Source of the DNA: a virus
Lineage: Duplodnaviria > Caudoviricetes
Length of the DNA: 64,000 bases
Reading direction: 5' to 3' (one strand)
Virus record (IMG/VR): IMGVR_UViG_3300033121_002140
Coordinates: 1 to 64,000 of that record
Part shown: one piece after another, positions 15,904 to 64,000 of the stretch
Layout: each line of letters opens with the position of its first letter
How positions within the stretch are numbered: the first letter of the stretch is position 1
Translations under genes and position numbers: made by a program
The notes under the pieces: generated by a model
The model's database searches: none
Seen by the model: the letters and a program-made list of their open reading frames with translations, nothing else
Told to the model about the DNA's origin: nothing

Positions 15904-15937
15904 GACCCGCACTGTACTGCATGAACCAAACGCAGTT

Positions 15938-24664: not shown

Positions 24665-24702
24665 GGCCTCAGGCGACTGTAATGCATGGCAGGGCGCAGT
24701 TT

Positions 24703-37976: not shown

Positions 37977-38080
37977 GGGCCCATCGTACGCCGCGCGCCT
38001 CACGCACGACACCACGCCGTGATCGGTGCCAGAGAACCCATGAAACCCGTGCCATGGCAACCACCATGTTGTTTCGCAGG

Positions 38081-44615: not shown

Positions 44616-45361
44616 GTCATCACCGCCCCTCCGACCACGCACTCTCCCTGGGACGTGCCGTGGGTCCACACCCGCAGCCCCCTGTCGATCGTGCAGGAAC
44701 CGCCCACACCGGCAGCACCGCACGCGCTGGCGACGACCACGTTCGCACGCGTCTCCTCAGCGAGGTCGACCCACTGGGCGTCAGGAGTCCCGTCGGGCGC
44801 CTGACCCCTCGAGGTCAGGAGACACAACACGTCCACTGACCCAGGGCCGTAGAACAACGCCTGGTCGGCGACGCCAAAGGGTCGGGACCTGCGCCACGAG
44901 TTCATCGAGTCGCGCCCGACCAGAACGCCCAGCCTTCCCACGGACGTGGCCACGACGGGCACCGGCAGCTCACCGCGCGTCGCCCAAAGGTGGTCCGTGC
45001 CCGCTAGGTTGCGCTTCTGCGCGTTGGCCATGAGTCCCGCAGGACCGAGCAGGGCGGCGGAGCTGTACAGCTTTCCCCTGCACGACTCGACGTACCCGAA
45101 GACGACATGGCAGCCAAACCTGCGCGTCACGCGCAGGAGGCACTGGGTCTGGTGTCCGTCCCTTGCCTGCGCGCAGGCGGAAGCCTCGCGCAGGCTGCCC
45201 ATGAAAGGCCCGACGGTGCATAGCTCTGGGAGCGCGATCACCTGCGCGCCCTTTGCTGCGGCCTCGAACGCGAGCTGCTCGGCCCGCGCCAGGTTGAGGG
45301 ACGCCTCGCCCGGCACGGGTTCGAACTGGACGGCAGCGACCAGGTGGACCCCGGGCGTCAC
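44612..45361 (-). CDS. carbon-nitrogen hydrolase (nitrilase) fold protein lacking the catalytic Cys
   Basis: VAAVQF, ALPEL, YSSAAL, QKRNL present; ICxD reads VGRD. Confidence 0.85.
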   Translation of the reverse strand: MTPGVHLVAAVQFEPVPGEASLNLARAEQLAFEAAAKGAQVIALPELCTVGPFMGSLREASACAQARDGHQTQCLLRVTRRFGCHVVFGYVESCRGKLYSSAALLGPAGLMANAQKRNLAGTDHLWATRGELPVPVVATSVGRLGVLVGRDSMNSWRRSRPFGVADQALFYGPGSVDVLCLLTSRGQAPDGTPDAQWVDLAEETRANVVVASACGAAGVGGSCTIDRGLRVWTHGTSQGECVVGGAVMT

Positions 45362-47234: not shown

Positions 47235-47896
47235 CAGGCACCCGTGGGCCCCGCGCCGGCGGCGGCCGGGGCCTGGAAGTCGGCCTCACGCTCGTCGTCG
47301 GTCAGCTCCGTGTCGATGCCGTGCTGGTCGGCGAGCGCCGCCTTGACAGCGTCGACCTCCTCAGGCTTTCGCCCCTTCTGCAGGAAGCCCAGGGCGCGCC
47401 GGGCGAGGGTCTGGCGCACGTCGATGACGGTGTCGAAGTTCTCGATCAGGCGGGCCACCATGCCCGCGAACGCGGCAGGATCGAACTCAGCGCCGCCCTC
47501 GTCGTCACCCACGTCGGCTGGGACCTGAGGCACGTCGTCGTCCCCCTCGTCTGCCTCACGCAGCAGGAAACGCCTCGTCATGCCCCTCAGGGAACCGTCG
47601 CGGCCCTCGGCATGGAGCCCCTTGCCAGAAGCCTCCTTCTCGAAACCGATGAGCTGGCGGTCCACCTGCGAGTCCAACGAAGAGCCGTCTGGCATGGAGG
47701 GCTGCTGCTTTCCGCCGGGTTCGTCCTCGTCGTCGCCGGCGTCCTTCTCATCCGTGTCGTCGACCGCGTCGTCGAACAGGTCGTCGCCTCCCTCGTCCTC
47801 GGCGCTGCCCTTTTCGTCCTTGTCCTCGTCCTCGGGTGCCTCGATCAACAGCGCGGCAGCGATGGTCCGGCGCAGCTCCCCCAGCCTGATCTTCAC
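47234..47896 (-). CDS. acidic late-class protein with LRRTIAAALLIE leader
   Basis: GTGA overlap; very acidic; GGAGG RBS. Confidence 0.75.
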   Translation of the reverse strand: MKIRLGELRRTIAAALLIEAPEDEDKDEKGSAEDEGGDDLFDDAVDDTDEKDAGDDEDEPGGKQQPSMPDGSSLDSQVDRQLIGFEKEASGKGLHAEGRDGSLRGMTRRFLLREADEGDDDVPQVPADVGDDEGGAEFDPAAFAGMVARLIENFDTVIDVRQTLARRALGFLQKGRKPEEVDAVKAALADQHGIDTELTDDEREADFQAPAAAGAGPTGA

Positions 47897-48627
47897 TTCA
47901 GTGCCTCCGCGATCTTTTCGGCCTTCGCCATGCGTTCCTCGACCACCTGCCAGTTGATCTCGCGCATCTGCGCGACCACATACGACTGACGGTCGGTCAT
48001 GTAGTCCCGGAAGTACGCGTGCGACCACACGTCGATCACGAGGACTGGGTACAGGCCCAGCATCACGTGCCCGTCATGTCCATCGATCACGGTGTTGACG
48101 TACCGCCTCAGGAAGGTGCTGTAGCCCATGACGACCCAGCCCTCCTGAGCGGCCATCGCGCATGCGATGAAGTCCTGCTGCCAGTCGTCGAACGTGCCCC
48201 AGTCCCTCTCCAGGCGCATGTAGGACTTGGTGTCGGAGTAGATCTGCGAGTGCGGGTCGAAGCAGTTGGCGAAGTAGAGATCATGCAGCCACACTGCGTT
48301 CGCGGAACGCGCCTCCGTGACCTTTAGGTCCCTGAAGGGCGACTTGTCCGGGCCCGAGCCCCCACGGTCCGCGGTGTCGAGCTCGGCGGACGCCTTGTTC
48401 AGGGCCTGCACGTAGCCCTCGTACAGCGCCTTGTGCGCGGCCTTGGTCTTGTCCGAGACCCGTTCCGACACCTGCGGGAACGTCTTCGCCTGCGCGACGT
48501 AGGACTCGTCCAGGCCTTGCGCCCGGGGAGCGACGCCCGCCTGCTGGAGCGACAGCTGCACGATCCTGTCGATGTTGAGGCCTGCCAGGGTCTGATCAGT
48601 CTTCGCCTCGCTCATCTTCATCAGCAT
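47893..48627 (-). CDS. Fe/Mn superoxide dismutase-like protein (atypical)
   Basis: H..LYEGY, LHDLYF, W..F, GWVV, IDVWSHAY (canonical DxWEHAY). Confidence 0.85.
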   Translation of the reverse strand: MLMKMSEAKTDQTLAGLNIDRIVQLSLQQAGVAPRAQGLDESYVAQAKTFPQVSERVSDKTKAAHKALYEGYVQALNKASAELDTADRGGSGPDKSPFRDLKVTEARSANAVWLHDLYFANCFDPHSQIYSDTKSYMRLERDWGTFDDWQQDFIACAMAAQEGWVVMGYSTFLRRYVNTVIDGHDGHVMLGLYPVLVIDVWSHAYFRDYMTDRQSYVVAQMREINWQVVEERMAKAEKIAEALK

Positions 48628-50022: not shown

Positions 50023-50796
50023 CTATGCGCGGGTCGCCCAGCCCGGTCGCTCAGGGTCCTCGCGCCACGGCCCAGTGCCCAGCAGCGAACCCCAGGCGGG
50101 TAGGTCCTGCCTGCCCTCCATCAAGAGCCTTGCGACAGCCAGGAACATGGCCTCGGCACGCTCAGGCTCCCAGGGCACGATGGGCAGGTCCTCATAGGGT
50201 GGGATCTTGGTGTGCGCGTAGCGGTGGCTGCCCGGTCCTGGGCCCATGACGTACATGAACTCTGTGCTGAGCATGCGCTTGTCGGCCAGCTTCACGTCGC
50301 CCGGCTCGTCGAGCCGCAGCCTGAAGGCCTTCCTGATGGTCCACATGGCACGGCGCTCGAAGTGCTTGTAGGCCTCGAACATGCCCGATACCTTGAGCGG
50401 CGCGGGTAGGTCCACCAGGTAGGCCTCGCTCGCGTCGTGCAGCAGACCCTCGAGCGCCAGGTCCTTGGGCAGGACCAGCGCGATCAGGACGGAGTGCTGC
50501 GCGACGCTGTAATGACGCTTGGTGTGGCCCGTGAACCTGCACTGGTTGGCCAACGCATGCGCGATGTCGTCGATCACAACCTCGACAGGATCAGGCCTGC
50601 ACGGATGGAAGGCCCGACCCGTGAAGGTCTGGATCCAGTCCATGCCATCGGTGACTGTGAGCTCGAATTGACGGCACCATGAGCACTTGCATGCGTGGCT
50701 CCTGTGCAGCGAGCCCACCTCGCACGGATCACCGCAGGACTCGCACCTGCCAAGGTCCTTGGGACACCAGGGACCTGCCGACATCGAGACGTTCAT
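50023..50796 (-). CDS. HD-domain 5'-deoxynucleotidase (YfbR-like, phage type)
   Basis: IQTFTG, DIAHALANQCRFTGH, YSVAQHS, LLHDASEAY..D. Confidence 0.9.
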   Translation of the reverse strand: MNVSMSAGPWCPKDLGRCESCGDPCEVGSLHRSHACKCSWCRQFELTVTDGMDWIQTFTGRAFHPCRPDPVEVVIDDIAHALANQCRFTGHTKRHYSVAQHSVLIALVLPKDLALEGLLHDASEAYLVDLPAPLKVSGMFEAYKHFERRAMWTIRKAFRLRLDEPGDVKLADKRMLSTEFMYVMGPGPGSHRYAHTKIPPYEDLPIVPWEPERAEAMFLAVARLLMEGRQDLPAWGSLLGTGPWREDPERPGWATRA

Positions 50797-51395
50797 CACT
50801 GGACCTCCTCGCTCGTGGCAGGCTCGTCGCCGATCCTGATGGATGGATGGCATGCCCAGCACCTGGGCTCGTACGTCTCCGACCCACCCACTTCGATCTC
50901 GGTCGACGACCGTGACGGTCCTGTCCGTTTCATCGTGTACCTGGCGTCACCCTTGCATGCAGCACACACGGAAGTCAGCTTCTCGATCCGAGTGGCCCAG
51001 GGCAACGCGGTCTGCACCTCCGTGAACGGCATGCCCGATGCCGACAGGTCCAACGACGACACTGCCACCGAGATGCCAGACTTGAAGGCCTCGATCAAGG
51101 CAGCGCCCCCGCCCGGCACCATGAAGAGCTCGTCCACCGCGATGGCATGAGGCGGCGTGGGTGCCGCCAGGACAGCTTCCAGGATCTCGAGGCCCGTCCT
51201 GACCGGCACCGCCGACGTGCGCCAGCCGCTGTGCGTGACGACGCTGTCATGGGCGTACCTGTCGTCGATCCTGGGCTTGAAGACAATGACGGTCCTGCCC
51301 TGGTGCCTGTAGCGATCGATCGCTGCCAGCAGCGCAGAGGACTTGCCTGACCACATCGGTCCCGTCCACACCACGAACTCAGGGGAGCTTCGCAC
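50796..51395 (-). CDS. tdk: thymidine kinase
   Basis: GPMWSGKS, FKPRIDDRY, VDELF, KLTSVCAAC, IEVGGSETYEPRCWAC; AGGAG RBS. Confidence 0.95.
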   Translation of the reverse strand: MRSSPEFVVWTGPMWSGKSSALLAAIDRYRHQGRTVIVFKPRIDDRYAHDSVVTHSGWRTSAVPVRTGLEILEAVLAAPTPPHAIAVDELFMVPGGGAALIEAFKSGISVAVSSLDLSASGMPFTEVQTALPWATRIEKLTSVCAACKGDARYTMKRTGPSRSSTEIEVGGSETYEPRCWACHPSIRIGDEPATSEEVQ

Positions 51396-52368: not shown

Positions 52369-52661
52369 TTGGTGGGCACCTGGTCCGTGAGCTTCAGACG
52401 GTCACCCGGCCACCAGGCCGGGGGCACGACAGCGCCCACCTCGACCTGCAGGCCGTCGATCGCCGTGTGCCGCACGACCAGGTGCCAGCCCAACAGCACC
52501 TTGATCCGGGCCCAAAAGGGCAGCACGTACGTGAATGTCATCATCCTGTGCACGCTCGGGCCATCGTCGTCCGTCTCTGCCGGCAGTCTCACCTGCACGT
52601 GGTGCGACCCGCTCTCCGTGTACCATGCCCTGTGACCAGAGATCTCATGAAACCTGTGCAT
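52365..52661 (-). CDS. hypothetical protein
   Basis: operon context with overlaps. Confidence 0.6.
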   Translation of the reverse strand: MHRFHEISGHRAWYTESGSHHVQVRLPAETDDDGPSVHRMMTFTYVLPFWARIKVLLGWHLVVRHTAIDGLQVEVGAVVPPAWWPGDRLKLTDQVPTK

Positions 52662-53094
52662 GTGTGCCTCCGTCCGGGTTTTCCGGCGTTTTTCCTGACC
52701 TTGCGGCGTCCCGCAGCGCCATCAACATGCGTCCGAGCCAGTTGTGGCCCACTCCTCGACACACGCCGAAATGACGGTCCCCCCACCAGTTCGTCTCGAC
52801 CAGCTCGGCGTCCTGCGTCAGCAGCAGCGCCTCGAGCAGGCCTGGATCGGAGAACTTCCGGAGGAGGCAGGCCCACATGACGGCGTTTTTCGTGGAGTCC
52901 CAGTCAGGACGCAGCACTGCGTGCCGTCCACGGGCTCGTGCCTCCCTGGCCGTGGGTGCCGACATGATCCAGGCGCGCTGGTCCGGGTCAAGGGTCTTCT
53001 CGGCCTGGTAGTGGTGCTCGACGCAGTAACCGTCGTCGGCCACGTGGAAGTTGGAAAGGAACCGGAACGCGCCCCTGAAGCCGTCGATCCTCAT
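52645..53094 (-). CDS. NADAR (YbiA-like) ADP-ribosyl hydrolase family protein
   Basis: FLSNF, VEHHYQAEK, RPDWD, LLRKF, LVE...DRHFG...G.NWLGRMLMALR. Confidence 0.92.
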   Translation of the reverse strand: MRIDGFRGAFRFLSNFHVADDGYCVEHHYQAEKTLDPDQRAWIMSAPTAREARARGRHAVLRPDWDSTKNAVMWACLLRKFSDPGLLEALLLTQDAELVETNWWGDRHFGVCRGVGHNWLGRMLMALRDAARSGKTPENPDGGTHAQVS

Positions 53095-53657: not shown

Positions 53658-53938
53658 GCCGTGACCTCCTCTTCGTCTCCAATCCTGATCACCCTGAAGG
53701 CCCAGCCCGCCGGGATCGCGAGGACGAGTGCGGCGGGATCGCGGGCCCTGAGCTCGTCCATGACGTCCCTGAGTCCCGTCTCCATGATCTCACGTGTGGT
53801 CTGCTGCGGCTCGTATTGAAACAGCAGGACGGTGCCCACGCCGTCCGGTATCTCGAAGCGCTCGATGTTGCCACGGCGGGCGGGCAGCTCTTCCCAGGTC
53901 TCGAAGACCCGCAGGATCTTATCGTGTGAACTTTGCAT
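53654..53938 (-). CDS. hypothetical protein
   Basis: operon context; natural composition. Confidence 0.65.
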   Translation of the reverse strand: MQSSHDKILRVFETWEELPARRGNIERFEIPDGVGTVLLFQYEPQQTTREIMETGLRDVMDELRARDPAALVLAIPAGWAFRVIRIGDEEEVTA

Positions 53939-54938
53939 ATCCGTTCCACGATGTGGATGCACGAAGCGCTCGAGACAGCGTCAGCAATCCGAGTCTACCC
54001 GCGCGGTGCGCCGCGAGAACCCTGATCCAATCCATCCAATAGCCATGGAGCAGCTCCAGAGCGCCAGACGCCTCGCGGACAGTCGAAACGACGTCACGAG
54101 CGGACCTCGCGGCACGCAGCTGACACTCCAGTGCTGCCATCGTCACTGTGGGCGGATGCGTCATGATCGCAGGCATCGATTTGTCCTGCTCAATGTCGAT
54201 CGGCGATGCCAGCGTTCGCTGGACCAACCGAAAATCACGCTCGTATACGTGAAGCGAGTTCGACACGTGTGTGTATGAACCCAATCCCACGGCCAGCTCG
54301 AGCGCCATGAGCTCCTGAAAGAGCGTGAAGGCAAAGACGTCGTAGGGCAACCCGATCACGAGATCGCTCGATCTCATCGAGACGATCAAGTGCAGCCTAC
54401 CTTCACGTAGAAAGAACTGCAGGGCAAGCGTGCACGGCACGTCTCTTTTGGCCAACCATGAATCGGTAGCTGACCGGATCTGGATCACAGCCCGGCGTGA
54501 ATCTGGGTCACGTCGCAGCTCTTCCTTGATGTACTCCCACTGGGACTGCATGGGCCCTGCCTTGAGCTCCCACGCTGTTTCCACTTCGTGACCGTGGACC
54601 CGCGGATGCCAACGCCTGAAGATCCTTGCACCGTAGGCCGAGTTCGCGGTCTTTCCATCGTCGCTGATTCCGCGCCAAAAGGGCGCATACCAGCCGATCC
54701 AGTCGGTCTCATCGTTTCCCGTCAGGTACCAGAGCGACTCTGCGACTGCATACGACACGGAACGGTCCGCTGCAGGCACGAATGCGAGCCTGGCTCTCGG
54801 ATCTGCCAACGTGAACTTCACTGCCAGCTGTTCTTTCACCCGTTGACCACGGGGTGCGCATTCATACGTGGGGTTCTCAAACACGCTCTTGAGCAGGTCC
54901 CAGTAGCAAGACGTGAAGCCGCTGTATGCACGTTCCAT
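53919..54938 (-). CDS. thymidylate-synthase-family enzyme, predicted dCMP hydroxymethylase-type
   Basis: PRG, AESLW, YGARI, DSRRAV, catalytic PCT, MRSSDLVIGLPYD (Asp at the ThyA Asn177 position), SNSLHVYE. Confidence 0.9.
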   Translation of the reverse strand: MERAYSGFTSCYWDLLKSVFENPTYECAPRGQRVKEQLAVKFTLADPRARLAFVPAADRSVSYAVAESLWYLTGNDETDWIGWYAPFWRGISDDGKTANSAYGARIFRRWHPRVHGHEVETAWELKAGPMQSQWEYIKEELRRDPDSRRAVIQIRSATDSWLAKRDVPCTLALQFFLREGRLHLIVSMRSSDLVIGLPYDVFAFTLFQELMALELAVGLGSYTHVSNSLHVYERDFRLVQRTLASPIDIEQDKSMPAIMTHPPTVTMAALECQLRAARSARDVVSTVREASGALELLHGYWMDWIRVLAAHRAGRLGLLTLSRALRASTSWNGYAKFTR

Positions 54939-54948
54939 TGCCAGAAGG

Positions 54949-54956
54949 ATACCTAT
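54949..54956. promoter_or_regulatory. bidirectional late-type motif (ATACCTA on +, ATAGGTA on -)
   Basis: lies in a 25-nt gap between divergent TS-like and GIY-YIG genes. Confidence 0.55.
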
Positions 54957-54963
54957 CAAAAAG

Positions 54964-55683
54964 ATGGCGTACATCTACTGCATCACGAACAGGATCGATG
55001 GAAAGCGCTACGTCGGACAGACGGCCACGACATTATCCAGGCGTTGGAACGGCCACAAACAGTCTGCCAAGCGTCATACCAACGATTCACATCTTGCTCG
55101 CGCAATCCGTCTGCACGGTCATGACGCATTCATGATCGAACCGCTGCAAGAATGCCAAATCGATGAGCTCGACGAGCTCGAAAGATGGTGGATCGCGCAG
55201 TTGCGCACGCAAGATCCCAACGTCGGCTACAACCTGTCGCCAGGTGGCCTGGGGGGCAATAGAGGGCTGCGCCGCTCGGACGATGCAAGGGCTAAAATGC
55301 GTGCACGACACTGGGCACGCGACGCTAAGCGTCGAGACCAGGCGACCAGGCGGAACAGCGAATCGCACGTGGGGATCGAGATGGATCACGAGACTCGTGC
55401 CAAGATCTCGAGGAGTCTCGCAGGCCATGTTCGCAGCGAAACAACGAGGACACGCATCGGCGAGACAAAAAAGGGCTCAAGCAACCCGATGTGGGGCAAG
55501 CCCTCCAAAAGACGTCCTGTCGTCCAGTGCACACCTGGTTGGCAGCTTATTGCAGTCCACGGATCGATCGAAGCTGCTGCGAAGGCCGCAAACGTCTCGG
55601 CACCGACCATCCGGTCCGCTTGCGCCCGGGCCGTCATTACGGCGGGATCGCGCTGGTGTTTTCTTGAGGACGACCCTGTCTAA
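54964..55683 (+). CDS. GIY-YIG homing endonuclease with NUMOD3/NUMOD1-like tail
   Basis: YIYCITN...YVGQT, RW.GH, GYNLSPGG, NPMWGK, SIEAAAK. Confidence 0.92.
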   Translation: MAYIYCITNRIDGKRYVGQTATTLSRRWNGHKQSAKRHTNDSHLARAIRLHGHDAFMIEPLQECQIDELDELERWWIAQLRTQDPNVGYNLSPGGLGGNRGLRRSDDARAKMRARHWARDAKRRDQATRRNSESHVGIEMDHETRAKISRSLAGHVRSETTRTRIGETKKGSSNPMWGKPSKRRPVVQCTPGWQLIAVHGSIEAAAKAANVSAPTIRSACARAVITAGSRWCFLEDDPV

Positions 55684-56645
55684 GCAACAATCGGGCGTGG
55701 GCCGCCCCAGTCGCCGCGGGCCTCGAACCACTCGCACGTCGCCTGCAGGCCTTGCCAGAGGCCCACCCTCGGCTCGTACCCAAGCACTGTCCGCGCCAGC
55801 GAGATGTCAGCGTGCGTCGTATGCACGTCTCCTACCCTGGACGGCGCCTGCACCATAGAAAGCTCGCCGTAACGTGCCCGCAGCGCCTGCAGGATCTGGT
55901 CGTTGGTGTGGGTCTCGCCGCAGGCCACGTTGAAGGCCCGGCCGTCCAGGGCATACGGATGCGCGGCGGCGAGCATGTTGGCATCGACGACGTTGTCGAC
56001 ATGGCACATGTCGCGGGATTGCGTGCCGTCTCCATCGCTACGCAGCGGCCGTCGACGCATCACGGCCGTGAGCCACGCCGCGATCGCGGTCGCGTAGGGA
56101 GAGTCCCCCAGGGAACCTGGGCCGAAGACGTTGAAGTACCGCAGGCACACCGACTCGAACCCATAGAGCCGCGCGTACAGGCCCAGGTAGTCCTCCACAG
56201 TGGACTTATGCATCGCGTAGGGTGATGCAGGCCTCCTGGGAGCGTCCTCACGGGTGGGTGTGACGGCACCGGGCCCATACACGGCTGACGAGGACGAGAA
56301 CACGAACCGCAGCCTGCGGCGCGCCAGGCGACATGCCTCGACCAGACGCATGGTGCGGTTGACGTTGACCTCGAACGTGCGCTCTGGATGCTCGACAGTG
56401 TAGGAGACCCTGGGCAGTGCCGCCATGTGGAACACGACGTCGTATCGACCGCTGCGAACCCGGGCCAGCACCTCGTCCGAGGCCATGTCCTCCTCTAGAA
56501 ACGACCAGCACTGTTGGGCCGGCGTCTTGTCGCAGGACGCCGTCAGGTCGTCCACCGCATCCACGGCCCAGCCCTCGCTGAGGAGCCGACGCGTCAGGTG
56601 GGACCCGATGAACCCGCAGGCGCCTGTCACGAGCGATGTCGGCAT
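55680..56645 (-). CDS. NAD-dependent UDP-sugar 4-epimerase-like (extended SDR)
   Basis: VTGACGFIG, SSSAVYG, YAMHK (YxxxK), RYFNVFGP, GDGTQSRD. Confidence 0.93.
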   Translation of the reverse strand: MPTSLVTGACGFIGSHLTRRLLSEGWAVDAVDDLTASCDKTPAQQCWSFLEEDMASDEVLARVRSGRYDVVFHMAALPRVSYTVEHPERTFEVNVNRTMRLVEACRLARRRLRFVFSSSSAVYGPGAVTPTREDAPRRPASPYAMHKSTVEDYLGLYARLYGFESVCLRYFNVFGPGSLGDSPYATAIAAWLTAVMRRRPLRSDGDGTQSRDMCHVDNVVDANMLAAAHPYALDGRAFNVACGETHTNDQILQALRARYGELSMVQAPSRVGDVHTTHADISLARTVLGYEPRVGLWQGLQATCEWFEARGDWGGPRPIVA

Positions 56646-56692
56646 GGCTCAAATTATCGCGCGCCATTGGCGGCTTGGGTCACGCCAGGTGG

Positions 56693-56917
56693 TCAGGCGA
56701 CGCTGGTCGCATGCGCTCGGAAGAAGTCGTACGCGTCCTCGTGGGAGACCTGCGCCGCGCTCGCGATGTAGGCCACCGCATCGTCATCCCCGTAACCCCG
56801 CGCCATCGCGTCGTCCAGGGCGACCGCCATCTCGCCCTCGTCAGCGGGCGTGACGCGTTCCATCTCTTCCCTGATCAGGTGCCGAAGTCGACGCACGGTG
56901 AGCATCATCGTCGTCAC
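56693..56917 (-). CDS. small protein with LRHLIREE leader
   Basis: leader motif; GAGG RBS. Confidence 0.7.
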   Translation of the reverse strand: MTTMMLTVRRLRHLIREEMERVTPADEGEMAVALDDAMARGYGDDDAVAYIASAAQVSHEDAYDFFRAHATSVA

Positions 56918-56922
56918 CTCGC

Positions 56923-57321
56923 TCAGTGCATGCTGAGCAGCGCATCCGTCAGGGGCTGCCTGTACTGCTCGGCGTCGTCGACGTCGCGCCTGCGTGACAG
57001 GTGCGTGATCACAGCTGGCACGACCTCATGCTCCAGGAAGTCCTCGTAGAGGTCGTAACCTTGGGACTCCCACTCACGCCAGGCCTCCCTGAGGCGCTGG
57101 AGCAGGTCGCCGCCCATGTAGCCCAGGTCCGTGACCTCGTCCACGATGTGCTCAGGCACGTCCGCCTGGGTCATCGCGTGGCCCACCCATTCACGAAACT
57201 CGTTCCACGTCGAAGCCTCAGGCGATGTGGGAGGCGGCTTGTTGGGAGCCTTGCCCGCCTCCACCAGGCGAGCAGCCTCTTCCTTGATGATCTGCCTGAG
57301 CCGTCCGACCGCGATGCGCAT
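56923..57321 (-). CDS. acidic protein with LRQIIKEE leader
   Basis: ATACCTA 5 nt upstream of ATG. Confidence 0.75.
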   Translation of the reverse strand: MRIAVGRLRQIIKEEAARLVEAGKAPNKPPPTSPEASTWNEFREWVGHAMTQADVPEHIVDEVTDLGYMGGDLLQRLREAWREWESQGYDLYEDFLEHEVVPAVITHLSRRRDVDDAEQYRQPLTDALLSMH

Positions 57322-57333
57322 ATGGCTAGGTAT

Positions 57334-57891
57334 TCACAAGACCAGCGCGGCCCGCAGCTCCGTGATCTGACGCCCGAGGTCCTCGTCGTCCACCGTGAGC
57401 CGCGTCACCCTGCAGCCGGTCGTCTCGACGAACTCCCGGTAGAGACCGTCGATCTGCATCAGCCGCGCTGGCCCGAGCTCGTCCGGGAACCTGTCGTCCC
57501 TGATCCCGGCGTACGAGGTGCGGGTGCACAGGACCAGGTCGGCACCCAGGGCCGCGTACCTGGCGTCCGCGTGCCACACGGCCGCGTCGTCCCGAGCACG
57601 GCCCATCGCCCTCGAATACACCCACTCGCACGGATAGCCGCGGTCCTTGACCATGCTGGCGCCAGATGCCCGGAGAAACGATGCCAGGTACTCGTCGCCG
57701 TAACGGACCGTGCGTGCGAAGCGCGTCGGGTCGTCCTTGAAAGCGTCCCACTCGCGGTCGTATTTCCAGTATGGGATCCCGACCGCCGCCGACAACCCGC
57801 GCGCGATCTCGGTCTTGCCACATCGATCTGGTCCAACCATCACGATGATGCGCTGTTCACGGTTTTCTGAAGTACTCGAACGTCCGTTCAT
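57334..57891 (-). CDS. dNMP/thymidylate kinase-like P-loop kinase
   Basis: GPDRCGKT, DRGYPCEWVYS; start uncertain. Confidence 0.85.
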   Translation of the reverse strand: MNGRSSTSENREQRIIVMVGPDRCGKTEIARGLSAAVGIPYWKYDREWDAFKDDPTRFARTVRYGDEYLASFLRASGASMVKDRGYPCEWVYSRAMGRARDDAAVWHADARYAALGADLVLCTRTSYAGIRDDRFPDELGPARLMQIDGLYREFVETTGCRVTRLTVDDEDLGRQITELRAALVL

Positions 57892-58669
57892 CCCACTTCA
57901 CTCCTTCAACAGCAAGAAGCTCTTGGAACGAGAGCTTCGGAAAGTCGTCCTCGGTGACTACCCTGAACTCCAGTCCCCGCTCTGCGCAGTACGCCCGGGC
58001 GGCTTCGAACTTCGCCATGTTCTTAGGCGTCTTCGCCAATCTGCTCGGCTTCACCTCGAACAGCAACCCTTGCGATGGCACACCGAAGTCAGGTCGGTAG
58101 GTACCGCCCGACCAGCGAATCAGGTGTGCCTCGTAGTCTAGGTCGTGCTGCACGTCCAAACCCATCGAGCGTTCTGCATGCAAGAGGAATGAGAGCTCGA
58201 ACAAGCTACGGAAGAAGACACCCTTGTACCAGCCTTTGACGGACCGACCGCTGCGGGCATACACTTTCCCCCACGCAGGATTGTTCTCGCCTGAGACAGC
58301 CGCCGACGTCCGCCGAGAGATGTCAGCGGCACGTTCCTCGCCATAGATCTCCGCGTTCGTCTTGCCAGTGCGGTGCTGCGTCACGCGCTGTAGACCATGC
58401 ACATGGTCATGTCGACCGTGCATTGGATTCTTCTCACCGGACGTTGCCTTCGACATCGTCAGCTTGAATCGTCGCGTTCTCTCAGCACCTTCGACGGCAC
58501 CGAGCTTGGCTTCAAAGCGCTCCTGCACTGATCGACCACGCTGCCACGCATTTAGGCATGACACGCAGCAAAACCGCGGCAGCTGCTTTCGAGACGGCCA
58601 CACGGTCTTGACCGCGGTCTTTCCGCACTGCGGGTTCTGACACACGAACTCGTACGCGACGGGCGACAT
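57857..58669 (-). CDS. TnsA-like PD-(D/E)XK homing endonuclease with Zn finger and NUMOD3 repeats
   Basis: CQNPQC...FCCVSC; GEKNPMHG and GENNPAWG; FRSLFE...YRPDF...FEVKP...KFEAA. Confidence 0.85.
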   Translation of the reverse strand: MSPVAYEFVCQNPQCGKTAVKTVWPSRKQLPRFCCVSCLNAWQRGRSVQERFEAKLGAVEGAERTRRFKLTMSKATSGEKNPMHGRHDHVHGLQRVTQHRTGKTNAEIYGEERAADISRRTSAAVSGENNPAWGKVYARSGRSVKGWYKGVFFRSLFELSFLLHAERSMGLDVQHDLDYEAHLIRWSGGTYRPDFGVPSQGLLFEVKPSRLAKTPKNMAKFEAARAYCAERGLEFRVVTEDDFPKLSFQELLAVEGVKWDERTFEYFRKP

Positions 58670-58705
58670 GATCTAAGGTATTGTCAGGGCCTTGAGATGT
58701 GCGGT

Positions 58706-59287
58706 CTATCCTGCCTTCAATCGCCAGTCATCACTCCGTCTCACCATGCCGATTTTTTTCACACGCACAGACTCCGTGGCCCACACCTCACCCGAGTCAC
58801 GAGAATCAGGCACGCAGTGCTTGAACAAGGCTTGCACGGCTGGATCTGCCTTGGCGCGCGTGATGTCAGCATCGTGCTGCCTCTGCGTCCACCGTCTCGA
58901 GCTCGTGACGTAGGGCCCGAAGTATGCTGGAAAGCGAGCATTGATGAACTTGAAGACGTCGAACTGCGCGATTTTCTTCGACGCGTGGCTGGGACACCGG
59001 ACGCGAGCGGGCTCGACCATGCCGGGCAGGTTGTCGACCGCGTAGACGTGGTACGCCTGTGCGAGCGTCTGCAGCCCATCGAGCGCGGCCTCGACGCTGG
59101 TCGCGAACGAGACGCGCGGCGTAAACCAGTCCTCGATGGGCATGCCTCGAAACTCGAGAGGATGCCTGGGAACACGTGGGACCAACACGACAGAAGGTCC
59201 CAGGTCTTTTTCCGAGAGGTGATAGTAGCTCTGGTCGCTGACTGCCTCGCGGATGAGGCTCCGGAGCCAACCCATCGAAACCTGCAT
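58706..59287 (-). CDS. protein with LRSLIRE leader, possible ADP-ribosyltransferase-like fold
   Basis: YYHLS...PRVP...ED.FTPRVSFATS; ATACTTG 6 nt upstream. Confidence 0.6.
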   Translation of the reverse strand: MQVSMGWLRSLIREAVSDQSYYHLSEKDLGPSVVLVPRVPRHPLEFRGMPIEDWFTPRVSFATSVEAALDGLQTLAQAYHVYAVDNLPGMVEPARVRCPSHASKKIAQFDVFKFINARFPAYFGPYVTSSRRWTQRQHDADITRAKADPAVQALFKHCVPDSRDSGEVWATESVRVKKIGMVRRSDDWRLKAG

Positions 59288-59305
59288 GCCAAACAAGTAT
59301 CGGTC

Positions 59306-59518
59306 TCAGGCCGAGGGCTGACACACGCACTCGAGCCCCGCGAAGGGTCCAGTCACGAGCTCGGCGATCACTCGGCCGTCGAGCGTGCGCTCGAGCTCCA
59401 CCGTGTGCGCCGCCTGCGGCTCGTCCGTGTGGATCGTCAGGCGCCTGCACACATGTTCGTCACCGCGCGCGAAGGCGGCCATCTCCTCGAGAAACTCAGC
59501 CGTGAACTCGATTTTCAT
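59306..59518 (-). CDS. hypothetical protein
   Basis: GAGAGG RBS; ATGA overlap. Confidence 0.65.
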   Translation of the reverse strand: MKIEFTAEFLEEMAAFARGDEHVCRRLTIHTDEPQAAHTVELERTLDGRVIAELVTGPFAGLECVCQPSA

Positions 59519-59850
59519 GCCTCTCTCCTCGTCACCAGCTCGACCAGCACGTCCCCATGGCACTCCGCGGGCTTGCACCTGCATGACAGCACGACGTCCC
59601 CCAGTGCCGGTAGGCACCCGAGGATCCACTCCCGGCGCTCGGGCTCCAGCTCCCGGTCGGACTCACCCAGCAGCCACGACCTGTAGCGCGACACGGCCTC
59701 GGCCCTGCTGCCCACGGCGACCGCCGCCAGTGTGCCTGTCGTGTGCGAGAACGGGTTGCCAAAGTGCATGCCCACGCGGCGGCGCGTGATGTCGATCGCG
59801 CCGGGACCCGGGGCCTCCCGGTGAGAGTTGACGACCCTCGCCTGGGTCAC
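59515..59850 (-). CDS. DUF4326-family protein
   Basis: VVN, IDITR...FGNPF, AVSRYRSWL, LSCRCKPAECHGDVL. Confidence 0.88.
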   Translation of the reverse strand: MTQARVVNSHREAPGPGAIDITRRRVGMHFGNPFSHTTGTLAAVAVGSRAEAVSRYRSWLLGESDRELEPERREWILGCLPALGDVVLSCRCKPAECHGDVLVELVTRREA

Positions 59851-60131
59851 TGGGCCCCCTGCGCGTGCCTGTCGTGCTGGCGCAGGACGCCCGCCATGCT
59901 GATCATGTCTTGGCCCGTGATCTCCACGATCGTGCGCCATGCGGTCACGACCTTCCCGAAGCACACTGGGCACAGCCAGATGAACGTGAGCCCGTCGCTC
60001 ACGTCGCAGATGTTGCCGAATCCGGTCTTGCGCCGGATCTCGCCCGCATCGTCTCCTCGGCTGTGCTCACATGAACGTGCGCCACAACGGCACACCAGCG
60101 TCGCCGTCTCATCACACACCGACACGGTCAT
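59847..60131 (-). CDS. Cys-rich hypothetical protein
   Basis: CRCG...CD...LCPVC; GGAGG RBS. Confidence 0.65.
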   Translation of the reverse strand: MTVSVCDETATLVCRCGARSCEHSRGDDAGEIRRKTGFGNICDVSDGLTFIWLCPVCFGKVVTAWRTIVEITGQDMISMAGVLRQHDRHAQGAQ

Positions 60132-60466
60132 CCTCCGATCCTCGCACCGTCCATGACGACGAGCCCGCCTTCGGGCACGGTCGCCAAGCGATCCACCACG
60201 TCGCTCGGCTCGGCATGATCTTGCGCCGACCACGACGCCGTCGAGCGCTCCGAGTCCTCGGCGTCCCAGCGGGCCAACCGTGCCACCACCCAATCGATTC
60301 CGTGTTTTTCTCTGCGGGCGATCGCCCACGCCTCGTCGTACCGAGGGTGATCCATCGCCTTCACGCGAGCCTGCTCTTCTGCACGCTCACGCATCATGCG
60401 GTCCCAGCCGGTCTCAAAGCCCGAGTCGAAGTCGCTGCCGCCGAAGTCGTCGGGTCCCACGTTCAT
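60128..60466 (-). CDS. hypothetical protein
   Basis: ATGA overlaps; natural composition. Confidence 0.65.
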   Translation of the reverse strand: MNVGPDDFGGSDFDSGFETGWDRMMRERAEEQARVKAMDHPRYDEAWAIARREKHGIDWVVARLARWDAEDSERSTASWSAQDHAEPSDVVDRLATVPEGGLVVMDGARIGG

Positions 60467-60807
60467 GACGCCGTCTCCAGGTAGGGCAAGATGTCAGTCG
60501 AATCGACGTCCCACACCATGAGGGTCTTAAAGGCACCCTCCACGTCGCCTTGGGCGTGCTGAAGGGCCTGTGGACCCTTTGGATGAGTCTCGACAGATGC
60601 CTGCATGAAGGCCGACAGCTCGGCCTCGCGCTCTGGGTCGATGGGCACCCACAGCCCAGGCGTCCTGCCGAGCGTGTGGCTCTCGAAGGCGGTTTGCTCC
60701 ATCAGGGCGTCGTCCTGCATCTGCCTCAACAGCGCGGCCTGCACCCCTGGGTCCATGGGCCGGGTCGCCCGGGGCTGCGGCACGAAAGAAGGCGTGTGGA
60801 CCCTCAC
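60463..60807 (-). CDS. hypothetical protein
   Basis: GTGA overlap with glycosyltransferase stop. Confidence 0.6.
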   Translation of the reverse strand: MRVHTPSFVPQPRATRPMDPGVQAALLRQMQDDALMEQTAFESHTLGRTPGLWVPIDPEREAELSAFMQASVETHPKGPQALQHAQGDVEGAFKTLMVWDVDSTDILPYLETAS

Positions 60808-62018
60808 GGCTCCAGCTCTTTCCGGGCCGCGGCCTCGATCATGTCGACCCGGTGCCCAGGCGAGAAGTCGGCCAACGCCCGCAGGGCACGTTCCTGCGCG
60901 GAGACCAGATGGTCGCGGTCCGCGGCCGACATGTCGGCCAGGTTTTTGACCTTCCGCACCACATCCTCGGGACCGTTCACCAGGAGCCCGCAGCCGTCGC
61001 CCACCTCACGCATGGGCAGGCTCTCGGCGGGCACCAGGGCGGGCACGCCCGCGGCGACCGCCTCCAGGTACCGCATCGTGATGTTGCCGTGTCTCGCGTA
61101 CTCGGGCTTCGTGATGTGACACACGGCCACGCTGTCGTTCAGGGTCCCGTACACGTCCCGAAACGGAAGGCGCGGCACGAAGGCTACGCCAGGATACGCC
61201 TGCAGCACCCCACGCGGGTGCTGCCGCTCGGGCGAGGGCGTGAGCCAGTTGCCGTGCACGGTCGTCTGAAGGCCCAGCCTTTCCCGGAGCTCCCGGGCAG
61301 GGCCGGCATAGTAGCGCACGAACTGGTCGTCACGCTCGTAGTTGTTGCCCACGTAGCGGTAGTGCACGGAGCCCTGGCGGGCCTTGTGGACCCTCGTAAA
61401 GTCGCTGCAGAAAGGCATGCGGACCCTGGGCCGCGTCAGCTCCCTAGGCCTGAGGCAGGGATCGCACACGGTCACCTTGGGCCACCGACGCTCGTCCTCC
61501 TCCGACACCTTCAGGTCCGTGTCGAGGACCACGATGGGCGTGCCCATGCGGGAATAGTGGTCCAGGAGCTCGACCTGGCGGTCCCAGTCGATCGTGGGCT
61601 TGCCCACGATCCGCCACCGCCATTCGACGAAGAGCACGTCGAGCTCGGGCAAGCCAGAACCCGCGCTGGAATCATCGACCTCGATCGGATAGCTGAGGAC
61701 GCACGGATCACCCGGCACGGGCGATGAGTCGATCCTGTAGTTTGGCACGGACCTGCCCTGTTCGAAGCAGGCCGCGATCATCGTGGTGCCTGCCTCACGG
61801 ATCGCGGCGGGCGTGCCTGCAAACCTGTTCAAGAATGCGTACCGCGTCTTCTCCCGCCTCTGCTGCAGCTGGATGACGCTGTGCCCCCTGCGCAGGAGCT
61901 CGTCCACCATCAGATGGCGCTCGCCGCGTAGGCCATCGGGCGTCTCGACCACGTGGCTGTCGCAGGGGCGCTCGAGAAAACCCCAGAACGAAACGCCACA
62001 ACGCAAAGACCGACTCAT
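60804..62018 (-). CDS. GT-B glycosyltransferase resembling T4 DNA beta-glucosyltransferase
   Basis: RYVGNNYER, RLPFRDV, ITKPEYARHGNITMRYLEAVAAG, LVNGPEDVVRKV match the BGT C-terminal pattern recalled from memory; AAGGAG RBS. Confidence 0.8.
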   Translation of the reverse strand: MSRSLRCGVSFWGFLERPCDSHVVETPDGLRGERHLMVDELLRRGHSVIQLQQRREKTRYAFLNRFAGTPAAIREAGTTMIAACFEQGRSVPNYRIDSSPVPGDPCVLSYPIEVDDSSAGSGLPELDVLFVEWRWRIVGKPTIDWDRQVELLDHYSRMGTPIVVLDTDLKVSEEDERRWPKVTVCDPCLRPRELTRPRVRMPFCSDFTRVHKARQGSVHYRYVGNNYERDDQFVRYYAGPARELRERLGLQTTVHGNWLTPSPERQHPRGVLQAYPGVAFVPRLPFRDVYGTLNDSVAVCHITKPEYARHGNITMRYLEAVAAGVPALVPAESLPMREVGDGCGLLVNGPEDVVRKVKNLADMSAADRDHLVSAQERALRALADFSPGHRVDMIEAAARKELEP

Positions 62019-62425
62019 AGGGGCTCCTTATACTCAAAAGGAGCTAGCATCGACACATGGCATGCATCTACTGCATCACCAACAAGACAAATGGAAAACG
62101 CTACGTGGGCAAAACGACAGGGTGTCCCGCAGAACGTTGGCGTGGGCACCCGGAGGCACAGCACGGCAGGCGCGGCATCGTTGTCCTGCAGCTTTCGTGC
62201 CAGGATGACGGCGGGCGAGCCGTCCTCGGCGCTGGAGGCATCTGACTGGGCACCCGGCAGCAGGCCTTCCTTGCCCAGGATGTCCACGAGCGACGCAGCG
62301 TCGTTCACGACGTGCCACAGCTCCACCATGGAGCCCGTGGGCACGAAGCGTGCCCATGTCGTTGGGTCTGTCGGATCGAGCGCCTCACTGAGAAAGGCCC
62401 TGACGAGGCAGCGCAGCTCGTACAT
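62015..62425 (-). CDS. truncated ART-like protein with LRCLVRAFLSE leader; C-terminus derived from antisense GIY-YIG relic
   Basis: LWHVV...LVDILGKEGLLP; CTATTTA 7 nt upstream; tail is antisense to 62057-62149. Confidence 0.55.
   Translation of the reverse strand: MYELRCLVRAFLSEALDPTDPTTWARFVPTGSMVELWHVVNDAASLVDILGKEGLLPGAQSDASSAEDGSPAVILARKLQDNDAAPAVLCLRVPTPTFCGTPCRFAHVAFSICLVGDAVDACHVSMLAPFEYKEPL
62023..62044. promoter_or_regulatory. 7-bp hairpin GCTCCTT-(8 nt)-AAGGAGC covering the glycosyltransferase RBS
   Basis: perfect inverted repeat; AAGGAG on both strands. Confidence 0.55.
62057..62149 (+). pseudogene. GIY-YIG endonuclease relic (first ~31 codons)
   Basis: MACIYCITNKTNGKRYVGKTTGCPAERWRGH closely matches the N-terminus at 54964, then homology stops. 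Confidence 0.8.
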
Positions 62426-62454
62426 GCAGGGATAAATAGCTCTCCGGGCGCGCG

Positions 62455-62841
62455 TCAGTCCAGATCCTGCAGCGCCTGCCGCATCGCGGTGACCACCGCT
62501 GAGTACAGCCCATCCTTCGCCTTCTGCGCAGGCGGGAGGTCGTCGTACCCCACCAGGCACGGATGCGTCTTCTTCTCGCCGTCCTTCACGGGACCGTGCG
62601 TCCAGCCGTCGCGCTGTTTCGCCGCCTTCCAGGCCTCGTACGCCGCCTTCCAGGCCTCGTACAGCTGCCTCGGGCTCGCGCCCTGCAGTGTCACTGCGAC
62701 GCTCTCGATCGAGGCCTCCCTCTGCCACTCAGGAGCCTGCTCCCAGTGTCCCTGGGAGGGATCACCCGTCATGTCGCAAAAGACCTTGTTGACCTCGTGC
62801 GCCGCGGCGGCGCACGCTTCCTTGACCTTGTCGCTCGTCAT
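62455..62841 (-). CDS. RyR-domain phage protein
   Basis: W...PEWQREAS, GWTHGPVKDGEKKTHPCLVGYDDLP..QKAKD. Confidence 0.9.
   Translation of the reverse strand: MTSDKVKEACAAAAHEVNKVFCDMTGDPSQGHWEQAPEWQREASIESVAVTLQGASPRQLYEAWKAAYEAWKAAKQRDGWTHGPVKDGEKKTHPCLVGYDDLPPAQKAKDGLYSAVVTAMRQALQDLD
62621..62662. repeat. perfect in-frame 21-nt tandem duplication (YEAWKAA x2)
   Basis: gccgccttccaggcctcgtac at 62621-62641 and 62642-62662. Confidence 0.95.
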
Positions 62842-62857
62842 CGTCCGTCTCCTCTTC

Positions 62858-63064
62858 TCAGTTCACTTCGCTCTCCAGCTTTCGGAGCCTGACCTGGAGG
62901 CGGCGCATGTCGATCGACAGCTCTAGGATCTCCTGGAGGTGGTCCTCCTGCCACACTTCCCTGGCCCGATGCCGTGCCATGATGGCGGCGTCGAGATCGT
63001 CCATCCCCTCCAGCACCTTCGTGATCGAGGGACGCAGGTGCTGCTCCTCGGGCGTGTAGCTCAC
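62858..63064 (-). CDS. hypothetical protein
   Basis: GTGA overlap; GGAG RBS. Confidence 0.6.
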   Translation of the reverse strand: MSYTPEEQHLRPSITKVLEGMDDLDAAIMARHRAREVWQEDHLQEILELSIDMRRLQVRLRKLESEVN

Positions 63065-64000
63065 AGGCTCAGCTCCTTTCCGAAATGCTCGATCGTCGAC
63101 CGCAGCCCATCCTCGAGCGTGATCTTCGGCTCCCAGCCCAGCATCGCCTGTGCCCTGTGGATCGAGGGTCGTCTCCTGCATGGGTCATCCACGGGCAGCG
63201 GCCTGCGCTCCACGTGGAGCGGCCAATCGCCCGTTGCCCGTGACCTCCCGACCATGGTCAGAATTGTCGACGCAAGGTCGTTGATGGTCACCTCATGCGG
63301 GTTTCCGAAGTTCATGGGTCGCCCGGCCCAGGGACCAGGCGCGGTGGTGCCCAGGGCGACCAGGCCACGCACCATGTCGTCCACATGGCACAGGCTGCGG
63401 GTCTGCAGGCCCGTGCCGTACACGGTCAGGCGCTCGCCTCGCAGTGCCTGCACGACGAAGTTGGAGACGACCCGGCCGTCATCAGGCCGCATCCTGGGCC
63501 CGTATGTGTTGAAGATCCGGGCCACCCGCACGTCCACGCCGTGACAACGCCGGTAGTCGTGACACAAGGCCTCGGCCGCGCGCTTGCCCTCGTCATAGCA
63601 TGCCCGGGGCCCGTACGGCTCCACGTTGCCTCTGTAGCTCTCCAGCTGCGGGTGCTCGAGAGGATCGCCGTAGACCTCGGAGGTGCTGGCCTGCACCATG
63701 ACGGCCCCGTTGAGCCGAGCCAGGTCGAGCGCGTTCTGCGAGCCCACCACACACGTCAGCAGGGTGCCCACCGGATCACGTTGGTACGCGGGCGGGCTCG
63801 CAGGACAGGCCAGGTTCCACACGTGCGTCAGGCCACCGCCCTTGACAGAGAGGAAGTGGGCCCCGTTCCAGCCCAGGTCCTTGGGCACGCGCACGTCACC
63901 TGCCATGAAGAAGAACCTGCCCGCGTGCGGACCCGGCTCCAGGTTCTTGGTCCGACCGGTCGACAGGTCGTCGATCACGAGCACGGAGTCACCCCGCGCC
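63061..64000 (-). CDS. UDP-glucuronate decarboxylase (UDP-xylose synthase)-like, 5' end off window
   Basis: IDDLSTG, LACPASP..YQ.DP, ASTSEVYGDP, YDEGKR, IFNTYGPRM..DDGRVVSNF, QTRS. Confidence 0.93.
   Translation of the reverse strand, partial: ARGDSVLVIDDLSTGRTKNLEPGPHAGRFFFMAGDVRVPKDLGWNGAHFLSVKGGGLTHVWNLACPASPPAYQRDPVGTLLTCVVGSQNALDLARLNGAVMVQASTSEVYGDPLEHPQLESYRGNVEPYGPRACYDEGKRAAEALCHDYRRCHGVDVRVARIFNTYGPRMRPDDGRVVSNFVVQALRGERLTVYGTGLQTRSLCHVDDMVRGLVALGTTAPGPWAGRPMNFGNPHEVTINDLASTILTMVGRSRATGDWPLHVERRPLPVDDPCRRRPSIHRAQAMLGWEPKITLEDGLRSTIEHFGKELSL

Follow-up and report, generated by a model that had tools for sequence, protein, structure and literature searches.

A virus-restricted glycosyltransferase cassette with a phage-encoded UDP-xylose synthase points to glycosylated 5-hydroxymethylcytosine DNA in uncultured giant phages

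The locus

The stretch of DNA considered here, in the following called the window, comprises bases 1-64000 of an 81,961-base (~82 kb) IMG/VR virus record of an uncultured phage (IMGVR_UViG_3300033121_002140). Toward its end lies a cassette of five genes which may enable the phage to build and glycosylate 5-hydroxymethylcytosine (5hmC) in its DNA, possibly with a pentose. CheckV puts the completeness of the record at ~24%. At ~82 kb it is thus a fragment of a giant phage of roughly 300 kb. The GC content of the window is ~66%, and frame analysis of GC at third codon positions (GC3) indicates that the minus strand carries nearly all genes from 14 kb onward.

The five cassette genes encode a thymidylate synthase homolog (53919..54974), a sugar-nucleotide 4-epimerase (55680..56645), a deoxynucleoside monophosphate (dNMP) kinase (57334..57891), a GT-B glycosyltransferase (60804..62018), and a uridine diphosphate (UDP)-glucuronate decarboxylase, i.e., a UDP-xylose synthase (UXS, 346 aa; 63061..64101, the window ending at 64000). 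The original prediction, read from the sequence of the window, described these genes as a single same-strand cluster for a pentosylated hydroxymethylcytosine. GC3 frame analysis and open reading frame (ORF) lists confirmed the cluster: all five genes are present and all are on the minus strand.

The thymidylate synthase homolog

The homolog is recognized by the Pfam model Thymidylat_synt (E 1.7e-21). The true start is probably at 54938 because the first 13 residues of the longer frame are missing in relatives. The closest solved relative is MilA (PDB 5jnh, 5b6d), a cytidine monophosphate (CMP) 5-hydroxymethylase, with E 1e-47. The two proteins align over almost the full length including a C-terminal extension. 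Canonical thymidylate synthases follow at E 1e-15 or worse, and against the NCBIfam thymidylate synthase equivalogs all scores are far under the cut-offs. Compared to T4 gp42 the enzyme is 24% identical and has in addition the extension of ~80 residues which it shares with MilA.

The functional assignment rests on six diagnostic positions. The catalytic Cys, C146 in Escherichia coli, is C181 and is invariant in an alignment with T4 gp42 and SPO1 gp29. The position of E. coli N177 is taken by D212 (LPYDVFAF); T4 gp42 and MilA also have Asp at this cytosine-specifying site, and the SPO1 deoxyuridine monophosphate (dUMP) hydroxymethylase has Asn. E. coli L143 corresponds to D178 (RDVPC) and D169 to D204 (RSSD), an Asp which is retained here and in all 37 linked homologs. 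R160 and S202 occupy the positions of MilA Lys133 and Ala176, as in the deoxyribose-specific enzymes for deoxycytidine monophosphate (dCMP) or dUMP.

The significance of these residues is documented. N177D specifies cytosine as a substrate and L143D/E, an acidic residue through which water is admitted, a hydroxymethyl instead of a methyl product (Lee et al., 2026, PMC13326640); the N177D rule is also stated in PMC5175136. D169N marks the enzymes of RB69, DLP3, and Thanatos, which are flavin-dependent 5-hydroxy-dCMP synthases (PMC13326640). The ribose preference of MilA is due to Lys133 and Ala176 (Zhao et al., 2016, PMC5175136). With Asp at the L143 and N177 positions and D169 retained, the homolog would be of the hydroxymethylase, not of the hydroxylase type. 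We infer that it is a dCMP hydroxymethylase with a complete residue signature, as had been proposed.

Three other identities were considered and rejected. A 5-hydroxy-dCMP synthase of the RB69 gp48 type is at variance with the retained D204, i.e., D169N is absent. A CMP-specific hydroxymethylase of the MilA/BcmA type would have Lys and Ala in place of R160 and S202. An ordinary thymidylate synthase disagrees with the equivalog scores below cut-off and with the residue signature.

The kinase

In Pfam the kinase, a P-loop protein, has a weak match to AAA_28; PHROGs, NCBIfam, and PADLOC hold no family for it. Its motifs are informative: a P-loop GPDRCGKT and a segment DR-Y-P-x-E-W-V-Y-S. A GxDxxGK(T/S) plus DR-aromatic motif is common to 23 orthologs, in which GPDRCGKT and DRGYP are invariant. 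The family profile matches YorR of SPbeta and deoxynucleoside kinases. The AlphaFold model has a mean predicted local distance difference test score (pLDDT) of 92.4, and Foldseek retrieves the thymidylate kinases of Mycobacterium tuberculosis, vaccinia, Thermus, and man as well as YorR (E about 2e-6 to 5e-5, TM 0.5-0.66). Profile and fold searches thus agree on a thymidylate-kinase fold, which bears out the earlier designation as a dNMP kinase.

The substrate would be 5-hydroxymethyl-dCMP (hm-dCMP), to be converted to the diphosphate hm-dCDP. A dedicated dNMP kinase fits the need of a pre-replicative pathway. In published assays of 5-hydroxy-deoxycytidine formation the synthase homolog was co-expressed with the dNMP kinase of the same phage (PMC13326640).

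The glycosyltransferase

The AlphaFold model of the glycosyltransferase (pLDDT 89.9) is a compact GT-B fold with two Rossmann-like domains. PF13524 is the only Pfam match. No family exists for this protein in PHROGs, NCBIfam, or PADLOC, a sequence search of solved structures returned nothing meaningful, and a fold search of BFVD produced generic viral GT-B matches only. A search of 1.84 billion representatives assigns 130 clusters to the family at E 1e-30 or better. In 185,579 prokaryote genomes it has no relative, so that prophages give no hint of the host; the family is virus-restricted.

The original prediction had termed the enzyme similar to the T4 beta-glucosyltransferase (BGT). This is fair for the fold, as modeled, and not for family membership. 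Among the top structural matches are T4 BGT and the T4 alpha-glucosyltransferase (AGT), level with BshA and PimA. A profile comparison by hhalign gives T4 BGT a probability of 53% over 127 C-terminal columns only; in this C-terminal domain the RVWE segment of BGT is matched by R316 and E319, both of which are invariant.

The enzyme of the window further has an insertion of ~45 residues (about residues 62-118) which is absent from all 34 aligned relatives and is modeled at pLDDT 58-73.

Conservation of the cassette

The cassette is widespread, and its conserved gene order provides the strongest part of the new evidence. Kinase, glycosyltransferase, and hydroxymethylase are found together beside a DnaE-type polymerase in more than 50 viral contigs, with glycosyltransferase identities down to 25%. 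In 50 IMG/VR records, as well as in several contigs from ENA, JGI, and Logan, no more than a few kb separate the trio from DnaE. In 53 IMG/VR loci the kinase adjoins the glycosyltransferase, the synthase homolog is at most 5 kb away, and DnaE is next to them. A 294-kb ENA contig (glycosyltransferase 64% identical) contains UXS, two small genes, glycosyltransferase, DUF4326, kinase, epimerase, synthase homolog, NADAR, and thymidine kinase. A 201-kb marine contig (37% identity) has DnaE, kinase, glycosyltransferase, a short-chain dehydrogenase/reductase (SDR), synthase homolog, another SDR, and thymidine kinase. The most distant members (profile E 1e-30 to 1e-36) have kinase, glycosyltransferase, synthase homolog, and DnaE, and no sugar enzymes at all. 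The cytosine-hydroxymethylase signature is present in each of the 37 distinct linked synthase homologs and in the distant copy of L064. In T4, beta-gt adjoins gene 42.

Recurrence in more than 50 independent viral contigs means that the clustering is not due to chance. Synteny and residue signature tie the glycosyltransferase to the 5-hydroxymethyl-deoxycytidine pathway far better than does fold similarity. Further, synteny and the neighborhood of replication and nucleotide genes (DnaE, thymidine kinase, FEN, Fpg, NUDIX) argue for DNA as the target and against virion proteins or the cell surface. From synteny and fold we infer that the enzyme is a 5hmC-DNA glycosyltransferase. What emerges is a virus-only glycosyltransferase family which is locked to predicted dCMP hydroxymethylases across an uncultured giant-phage clade and is combined with swappable sugar modules.

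The clade is remote from cultured phages. Neither megablast with the 10-kb region nor tblastn with the glycosyltransferase found a match in 50,697 deposited phage records, and the best identity of the DnaE to cultured phages is only ~26%.

In L064 a gene with a weak match to dUTPase_2 (2550-2927) lies ahead of the distant cassette, which consists of kinase, glycosyltransferase, synthase homolog, and DnaE. This gene is a candidate dCTPase/dUTPase partner; none was seen in the record of the window.

The sugar supply

UXS matches human UXS1 over its full length with E 7e-87 over 331 residues. It retains the NAD site GGAGFIGSH, the Thr-x-Glu of STSEVYG, the Tyr-x3-Lys of YDEGKR, and RIFNTYGPRM; an insertion of 13 residues follows the NAD-binding region. 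A full-length match with intact catalytic motifs makes UDP-xylose synthesis well supported, and the decarboxylase assignment of the original prediction stands. In contrast to human UXS1 and the bacterial UDP-xylose synthases, the gene is here phage-encoded beside a DNA-modification cassette.

The epimerase is an extended SDR (Pfam Epimerase, E 4e-54) of the GalE/WbpP-like, NAD-dependent kind. Its solved relatives are 10ke, Thermotoga maritima GalE, WbgU, and WbpP (E 1e-46 to 1e-40), the best being 4-epimerases. The motifs are TGACGFIGSH (GxxGxxG), SSSSAVYG with the catalytic Ser, and YAMHK (Tyr-x3-Lys); an acidic residue of dehydratases or decarboxylases is not present. Thus, the predicted identity as an epimerase holds. 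The proposed arabinose step is weakened, as detailed below.

True UXS, i.e., proteins at least 47% identical to that of the window, occur only in the window, L003/L004, L047, L053, and L054. In all five lineages UXS is at most 7 kb from the glycosyltransferase, in differing arrangements, and L054 has UXS without the epimerase. Mapped on the glycosyltransferase tree UXS requires four changes, not fewer than with shuffled labels; a single origin of UXS on this tree was sought and is unsupported. The pattern suggests that the sugar supply is modular.

In one marine clade (L005, 11047-12039; L030, L031, L043, L044, and others) a second GalE-like SDR replaces UXS. Among solved proteins the one closest to the L005 protein is T. 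maritima GalE (E 1e-46), an indication of a different sugar.

A UDP-glucose/GDP-mannose dehydrogenase was found in the record of L052 (G004:C1, 151097-151558), ~100 kb from the cassette. This is the only relative searched which has one.

A predicted pathway

These data can be assembled into a route which follows the logic of T4, as originally proposed; active-site signature and synteny beside DnaE support this part. The thymidylate synthase homolog would hydroxymethylate dCMP, as its residue signature suggests. The kinase would convert hm-dCMP to hm-dCDP and a host nucleoside diphosphate kinase the latter to the triphosphate hm-dCTP, which the DnaE-type polymerase of the phage would incorporate into DNA. 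Subsequently, the virus-specific GT-B enzyme would move a sugar from a UDP-sugar onto the 5-hydroxymethyl group, a role consistent with synteny and fold. UXS, the identity of which is well supported, would convert UDP-glucuronate of the host to UDP-xylose. The likeliest sugar would then be a xylose-derived pentose, either unchanged xylose or, provided that UDP-xylose is a substrate of the epimerase, L-arabinose. DNA so modified would withstand restriction and other DNA-reading nucleases.

We have graded confidence in the parts of this proposal. It is probable that the cassette gives some form of glycosyl-5hmC DNA. That the sugar is a pentose we consider an even call. The complete statement, i.e., glycosyl-5hmC DNA by a T4-type route with its own sugar-donor supply, pentose included, is likewise evenly balanced. 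A generalization is put forward tentatively, at slightly under even chances: in a large and entirely uncultured clade of DnaE-carrying giant phages, ranging from marine to high-GC members, a single virus-only GT-B family would glycosylate 5hmC while the sugar modules are swapped (epimerase, two epimerases, epimerase plus UXS, or UXS), and the window and four further lineages would carry xylosyl- or L-arabinopyranosyl-5hmC.

T4 itself makes glucosyl-5hmC with gp42, the gp1 dNMP kinase, and alpha- and beta-glucosyltransferases by the same sequence of events, hm-dCMP to DNA to sugar transfer. The differences concern the components. Here the kinase has a thymidylate-kinase fold and the glycosyltransferase belongs to a separate sequence family (PF13524). 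T4 uses UDP-glucose of its host, whereas UXS and epimerase are phage-encoded here, and no dCTPase is seen in the record.

A second group of comparable phages comprises RB69, DLP3, and HY126, with arabinosyl-5-hydroxycytosine, and Thanatos. With the present cassette they would share a pentose at C5 of cytosine, a thymidylate synthase homolog with a dNMP kinase, and a UDP-pentose made by the phage. The original prediction cited RB69-like T-even phages for arabinosylated cytosines. This background has to be updated: in RB69 and DLP3 the base which carries the D-arabinofuranose is 5-hydroxycytosine, not 5hmC, and the sugar derives from ribulose-5-phosphate (PMC13326640). In the Shewanella phage Thanatos cytosine bears a group of the pentose type, and the phage has a gene for a UDP-xylose pyrophosphorylase (PMC12838424); the synthase homolog of Thanatos belongs to the D169N type (PMC13326640). 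All these synthases are flavin-dependent 5-hydroxy-dCMP enzymes with D169N, whereas D169 is retained here, so the acceptor would be a hydroxymethyl, not a hydroxyl group. The donors differ as well. UDP-arabinofuranose of the RB69 type is formed from ribulose-5-phosphate via isomerase, kinase/pyrophosphorylase, and phosphatase, Thanatos has its pyrophosphorylase, and here decarboxylation of UDP-glucuronate would supply the donor.

A third precedent is the metavirome clusters of a glycosyltransferase, 5mYOX or ThyS, and an epimerase. An earlier study extracted from IMG/VR neighborhoods in which GT-B and ThyS genes occur with partner epimerases, and it demonstrated epimerase-dependent hexose (Hex), N-acetylhexosamine (HexNAc), and hexuronic acid (HexA) adducts on 5hmC in E. 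coli (bioRxiv 10.1101/2023.12.21.572611). The likeness is a GT-B gene beside ThyS, often with a partner epimerase; the difference is that xylose, pentoses, and decarboxylases do not figure in that text. Full-text literature searches retrieved no paper in which UXS or UDP-xylose synthase is connected with the modification of phage DNA, nor did they retrieve any on xylosyl- or L-arabinosyl-5hmC. For 5-hydroxycytosine, pentoses have previously been described in RB69, DLP3, and Thanatos. The new part would be a UXS-fed pentosyl-5hmC.

Glycosylated hydroxymethylcytosine is the classic shield of phages against restriction enzymes and CRISPR nucleases, and the sugar determines which defense systems still detect phage DNA. 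If the proposal is true, neither a pentose on 5hmC nor a DNA modification supplied by UDP-glucuronate decarboxylation would have a precedent; UXS-fed pentosyl-5hmC would be a new base in phage DNA chemistry. A further outcome would be a new family of DNA glycosyltransferases, restricted to viruses and of possible use in 5hmC labeling and sequencing. More than 50 contigs of uncultured giant phages carry the cassette as a marker, and their DNA may be under-represented or misread in metagenomes. In our opinion the glycosyltransferase family with its swappable modules deserves no less interest than the single pentose prediction.

Evidence against the proposal and alternative explanations

Several findings weigh against the pathway as drawn, some of them against the pentose and others against DNA as the acceptor. 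UXS is an accessory gene, present in 5 of ~25 distinct lineages and missing from records which are 84-92% complete. The epimerase, on the other hand, is core to almost every cassette, including those of ~40 relatives without UXS. No UXS-linked substitution was found in the epimerase: its catalytic and pocket motifs do not vary with the presence or absence of UXS. A core epimerase with unchanged motifs weakens the UDP-L-arabinose step. Probably, the enzyme is not a dedicated UDP-xylose 4-epimerase, and its usual substrate is probably a UDP-sugar of the host, in which case a hexose-type donor could serve the glycosyltransferase. Conversion of UDP-xylose to UDP-L-arabinose by this enzyme is possible but not indicated. 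Xylose would be the more direct prediction, and L-arabinose specifically is less likely than xylose.

Precursor supply is a further point. The original prediction suggested a search beyond 64 kb for UDP-glucose dehydrogenase and dCTPase; neither was found. The 82-kb record, equivalent to ~24% of the genome, has no UDP-glucose dehydrogenase, MazG-type dCTPase, or dCMP deaminase, and three relatives with UXS (records 20-52% complete) likewise lack UDP-glucose dehydrogenase. Consequently, UDP-glucuronate would have to come from the host. This is plausible, as the N-terminal domain model used for this dehydrogenase matches 14 of 14 control genomes, 11 of them above cut-off.

In the foremost alternative the DNA does carry glycosyl-5hmC and the sugar is, as in the many relatives without UXS, the epimerase product of a host UDP-sugar, e.g., a galacto-configured hexose, HexNAc, or hexuronate. 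UXS would then serve another purpose, e.g., feed a second sugar via a glycosyltransferase in the three quarters of the genome outside the record, or serve a non-DNA glycan. The near-ubiquity of the epimerase regardless of UXS, its resemblance to WbpP, WbgU, and GalE, and the published phage pairs of glycosyltransferase and epimerase which yield Hex-, HexNAc-, and HexA-modified cytosine all speak for it. Yet UXS and the glycosyltransferase share a strand at a distance of 1 kb, and UXS accompanies the cassette in five lineages, one of which lacks an epimerase. Further, no second glycosyltransferase was found in the 82-kb record in searches with PF00535 and PF13524, and GT2 is not present. On balance we regard this alternative as unlikely, albeit deserving serious consideration.

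A different set of findings concerns the acceptor. The Foldseek ranking is headed by GT4-like enzymes with T4 BGT in 45th place, and structurally the glycosyltransferase is level with GT4 enzymes acting on small molecules or lipids. By sequence it is not a member of the T4 BGT family, as hmmscan against Pfam reports PF13524 only. The median isoelectric point (pI) of the family is an acidic 5.96 compared to 9.05 for T4 BGT, a mild caution with respect to DNA binding. One may therefore envisage plain 5hmC DNA, with glycosyltransferase, epimerase, and UXS acting on virion proteins, a glycan of the host envelope, or a small molecule. The fold matches, mostly enzymes acting on lipids, thiols, or glycans, and the acidic character of the family unlike that of T4 BGT are in line with this possibility. 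Actinophage glycosyltransferases are known to glycosylate virions. However, the glycosyltransferase adjoins kinase and hydroxymethylase in every one of the more than 50 contigs, including the distant ones devoid of sugar genes. The family was not seen in cellular genomes, and it sits among replication, not structural, genes. A non-DNA acceptor appears rather improbable on these grounds.

Even less probable, and in our view barely tenable, is a cluster which produces a free sugar nucleoside or nucleotide of hydroxymethylcytosine and leaves the DNA unmodified. The model would be mildiomycin biosynthesis, in which hm-CMP arises by the action of MilA and the base is then joined with UDP-glucuronate by a glycosyltransferase. 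Of all solved proteins MilA is much the nearest to the synthase homolog, the cluster includes a UDP-glucuronate-using enzyme, and in the close relative L003 a nucleoside-deoxyribosyltransferase-like gene is nearby. Against this, the residues for the ribose preference of MilA are replaced by the deoxy-type Arg and Ser, an enzyme with a dNMP-kinase fold is a core partner, and no MilB-like gene turned up among the scanned ORFs of the record. Finally, that the synthase homolog is an ordinary deoxythymidine monophosphate (dTMP) synthase or a dUMP hydroxymethylase only incidentally linked to sugar genes may be dismissed: automatic annotation labels such genes thymidylate synthase, but the equivalog scores are far too low and Asp replaces Asn at N177 and Leu at L143.

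Genes within and around the cassette

Not every gene in the region belongs to the pathway. A homing-endonuclease-like gene (57857..58669, minus strand) combines NUMOD3 with a TnsA-like endonuclease N-terminal domain and is located between the DUF4326 and 196-aa genes on one side and the kinase on the other. Its GC3 is below that of its neighbors, it overlaps the start of the kinase gene by 35 nt, and it is not at the syntenic place in the close relative L003. It is an insertion and stands outside the pathway. Four small ORFs lie between glycosyltransferase and kinase (58706..60807, minus strand), encoding 114 aa, 112 aa, a DUF4326 protein (59515-59973, E 2.6e-14), and 196 aa; only DUF4326 is common to L003 and the other three are without a family. 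Three more are positioned between UXS and glycosyltransferase (62015..63181, minus strand): a 107-aa product, an RyR-domain protein (62455-62841; RyR E 1.8e-8), and a product of ~137 aa. The first and the last have homologs in L003/L004 only.

Downstream of the synthase homolog are a NADAR-domain protein (52645-53094, minus strand), thymidine kinase, and a weak HD-domain match. NADAR enzymes undo ADP-ribosylation of DNA guanine. L003 has both a NADAR and a DUF4326 protein; flanking or lying beside the cassette, these two may be counter-defense genes. The HD-domain candidate, 279 aa long and next to thymidine kinase (50023-50862, minus strand), resembles YfbR-like 5'-deoxynucleotidases at E 0.007, which is below cut-off; it could have a role in the nucleotide pool.

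A structural module adjoining the cassette was not seen in the window. The remainder of the window is made up of replication, repair, and metabolic genes, among them FEN and an endolysin. On the minus strand are a GroEL-like chaperonin (14266-15951), an Fpg/Nei glycosylase (19393-20223), an AlkB-like 2-oxoglutarate (2OG)-Fe(II) oxygenase (23963-24901), an HhH-GPD glycosylase (24950-25420), a NUDIX hydrolase (37257-38060) which is a conceivable candidate for a dCTP pyrophosphatase, a carbon-nitrogen hydrolase (44612-45361), and an Fe/Mn superoxide-dismutase-like protein (47893-48627). The MBD4-like glycosylase which the original prediction found to fit the picture is the HhH-GPD protein; at a distance of ~29 kb it is outside the cluster.

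Upstream of the UXS gene follow a GNAT-Thg1 fusion, an R2K ATP-grasp protein, and the DnaE-type polymerase. Beyond the window, at 64080-66099 and 73875-80815, the record contains a set of RNA-repair-type genes upstream of the cassette, consisting of this GNAT-Thg1 fusion (458 aa), the R2K ATP-grasp protein, a metallophosphatase, a PNKP-type kinase-phosphatase, and an RlaP nucleotidyltransferase.

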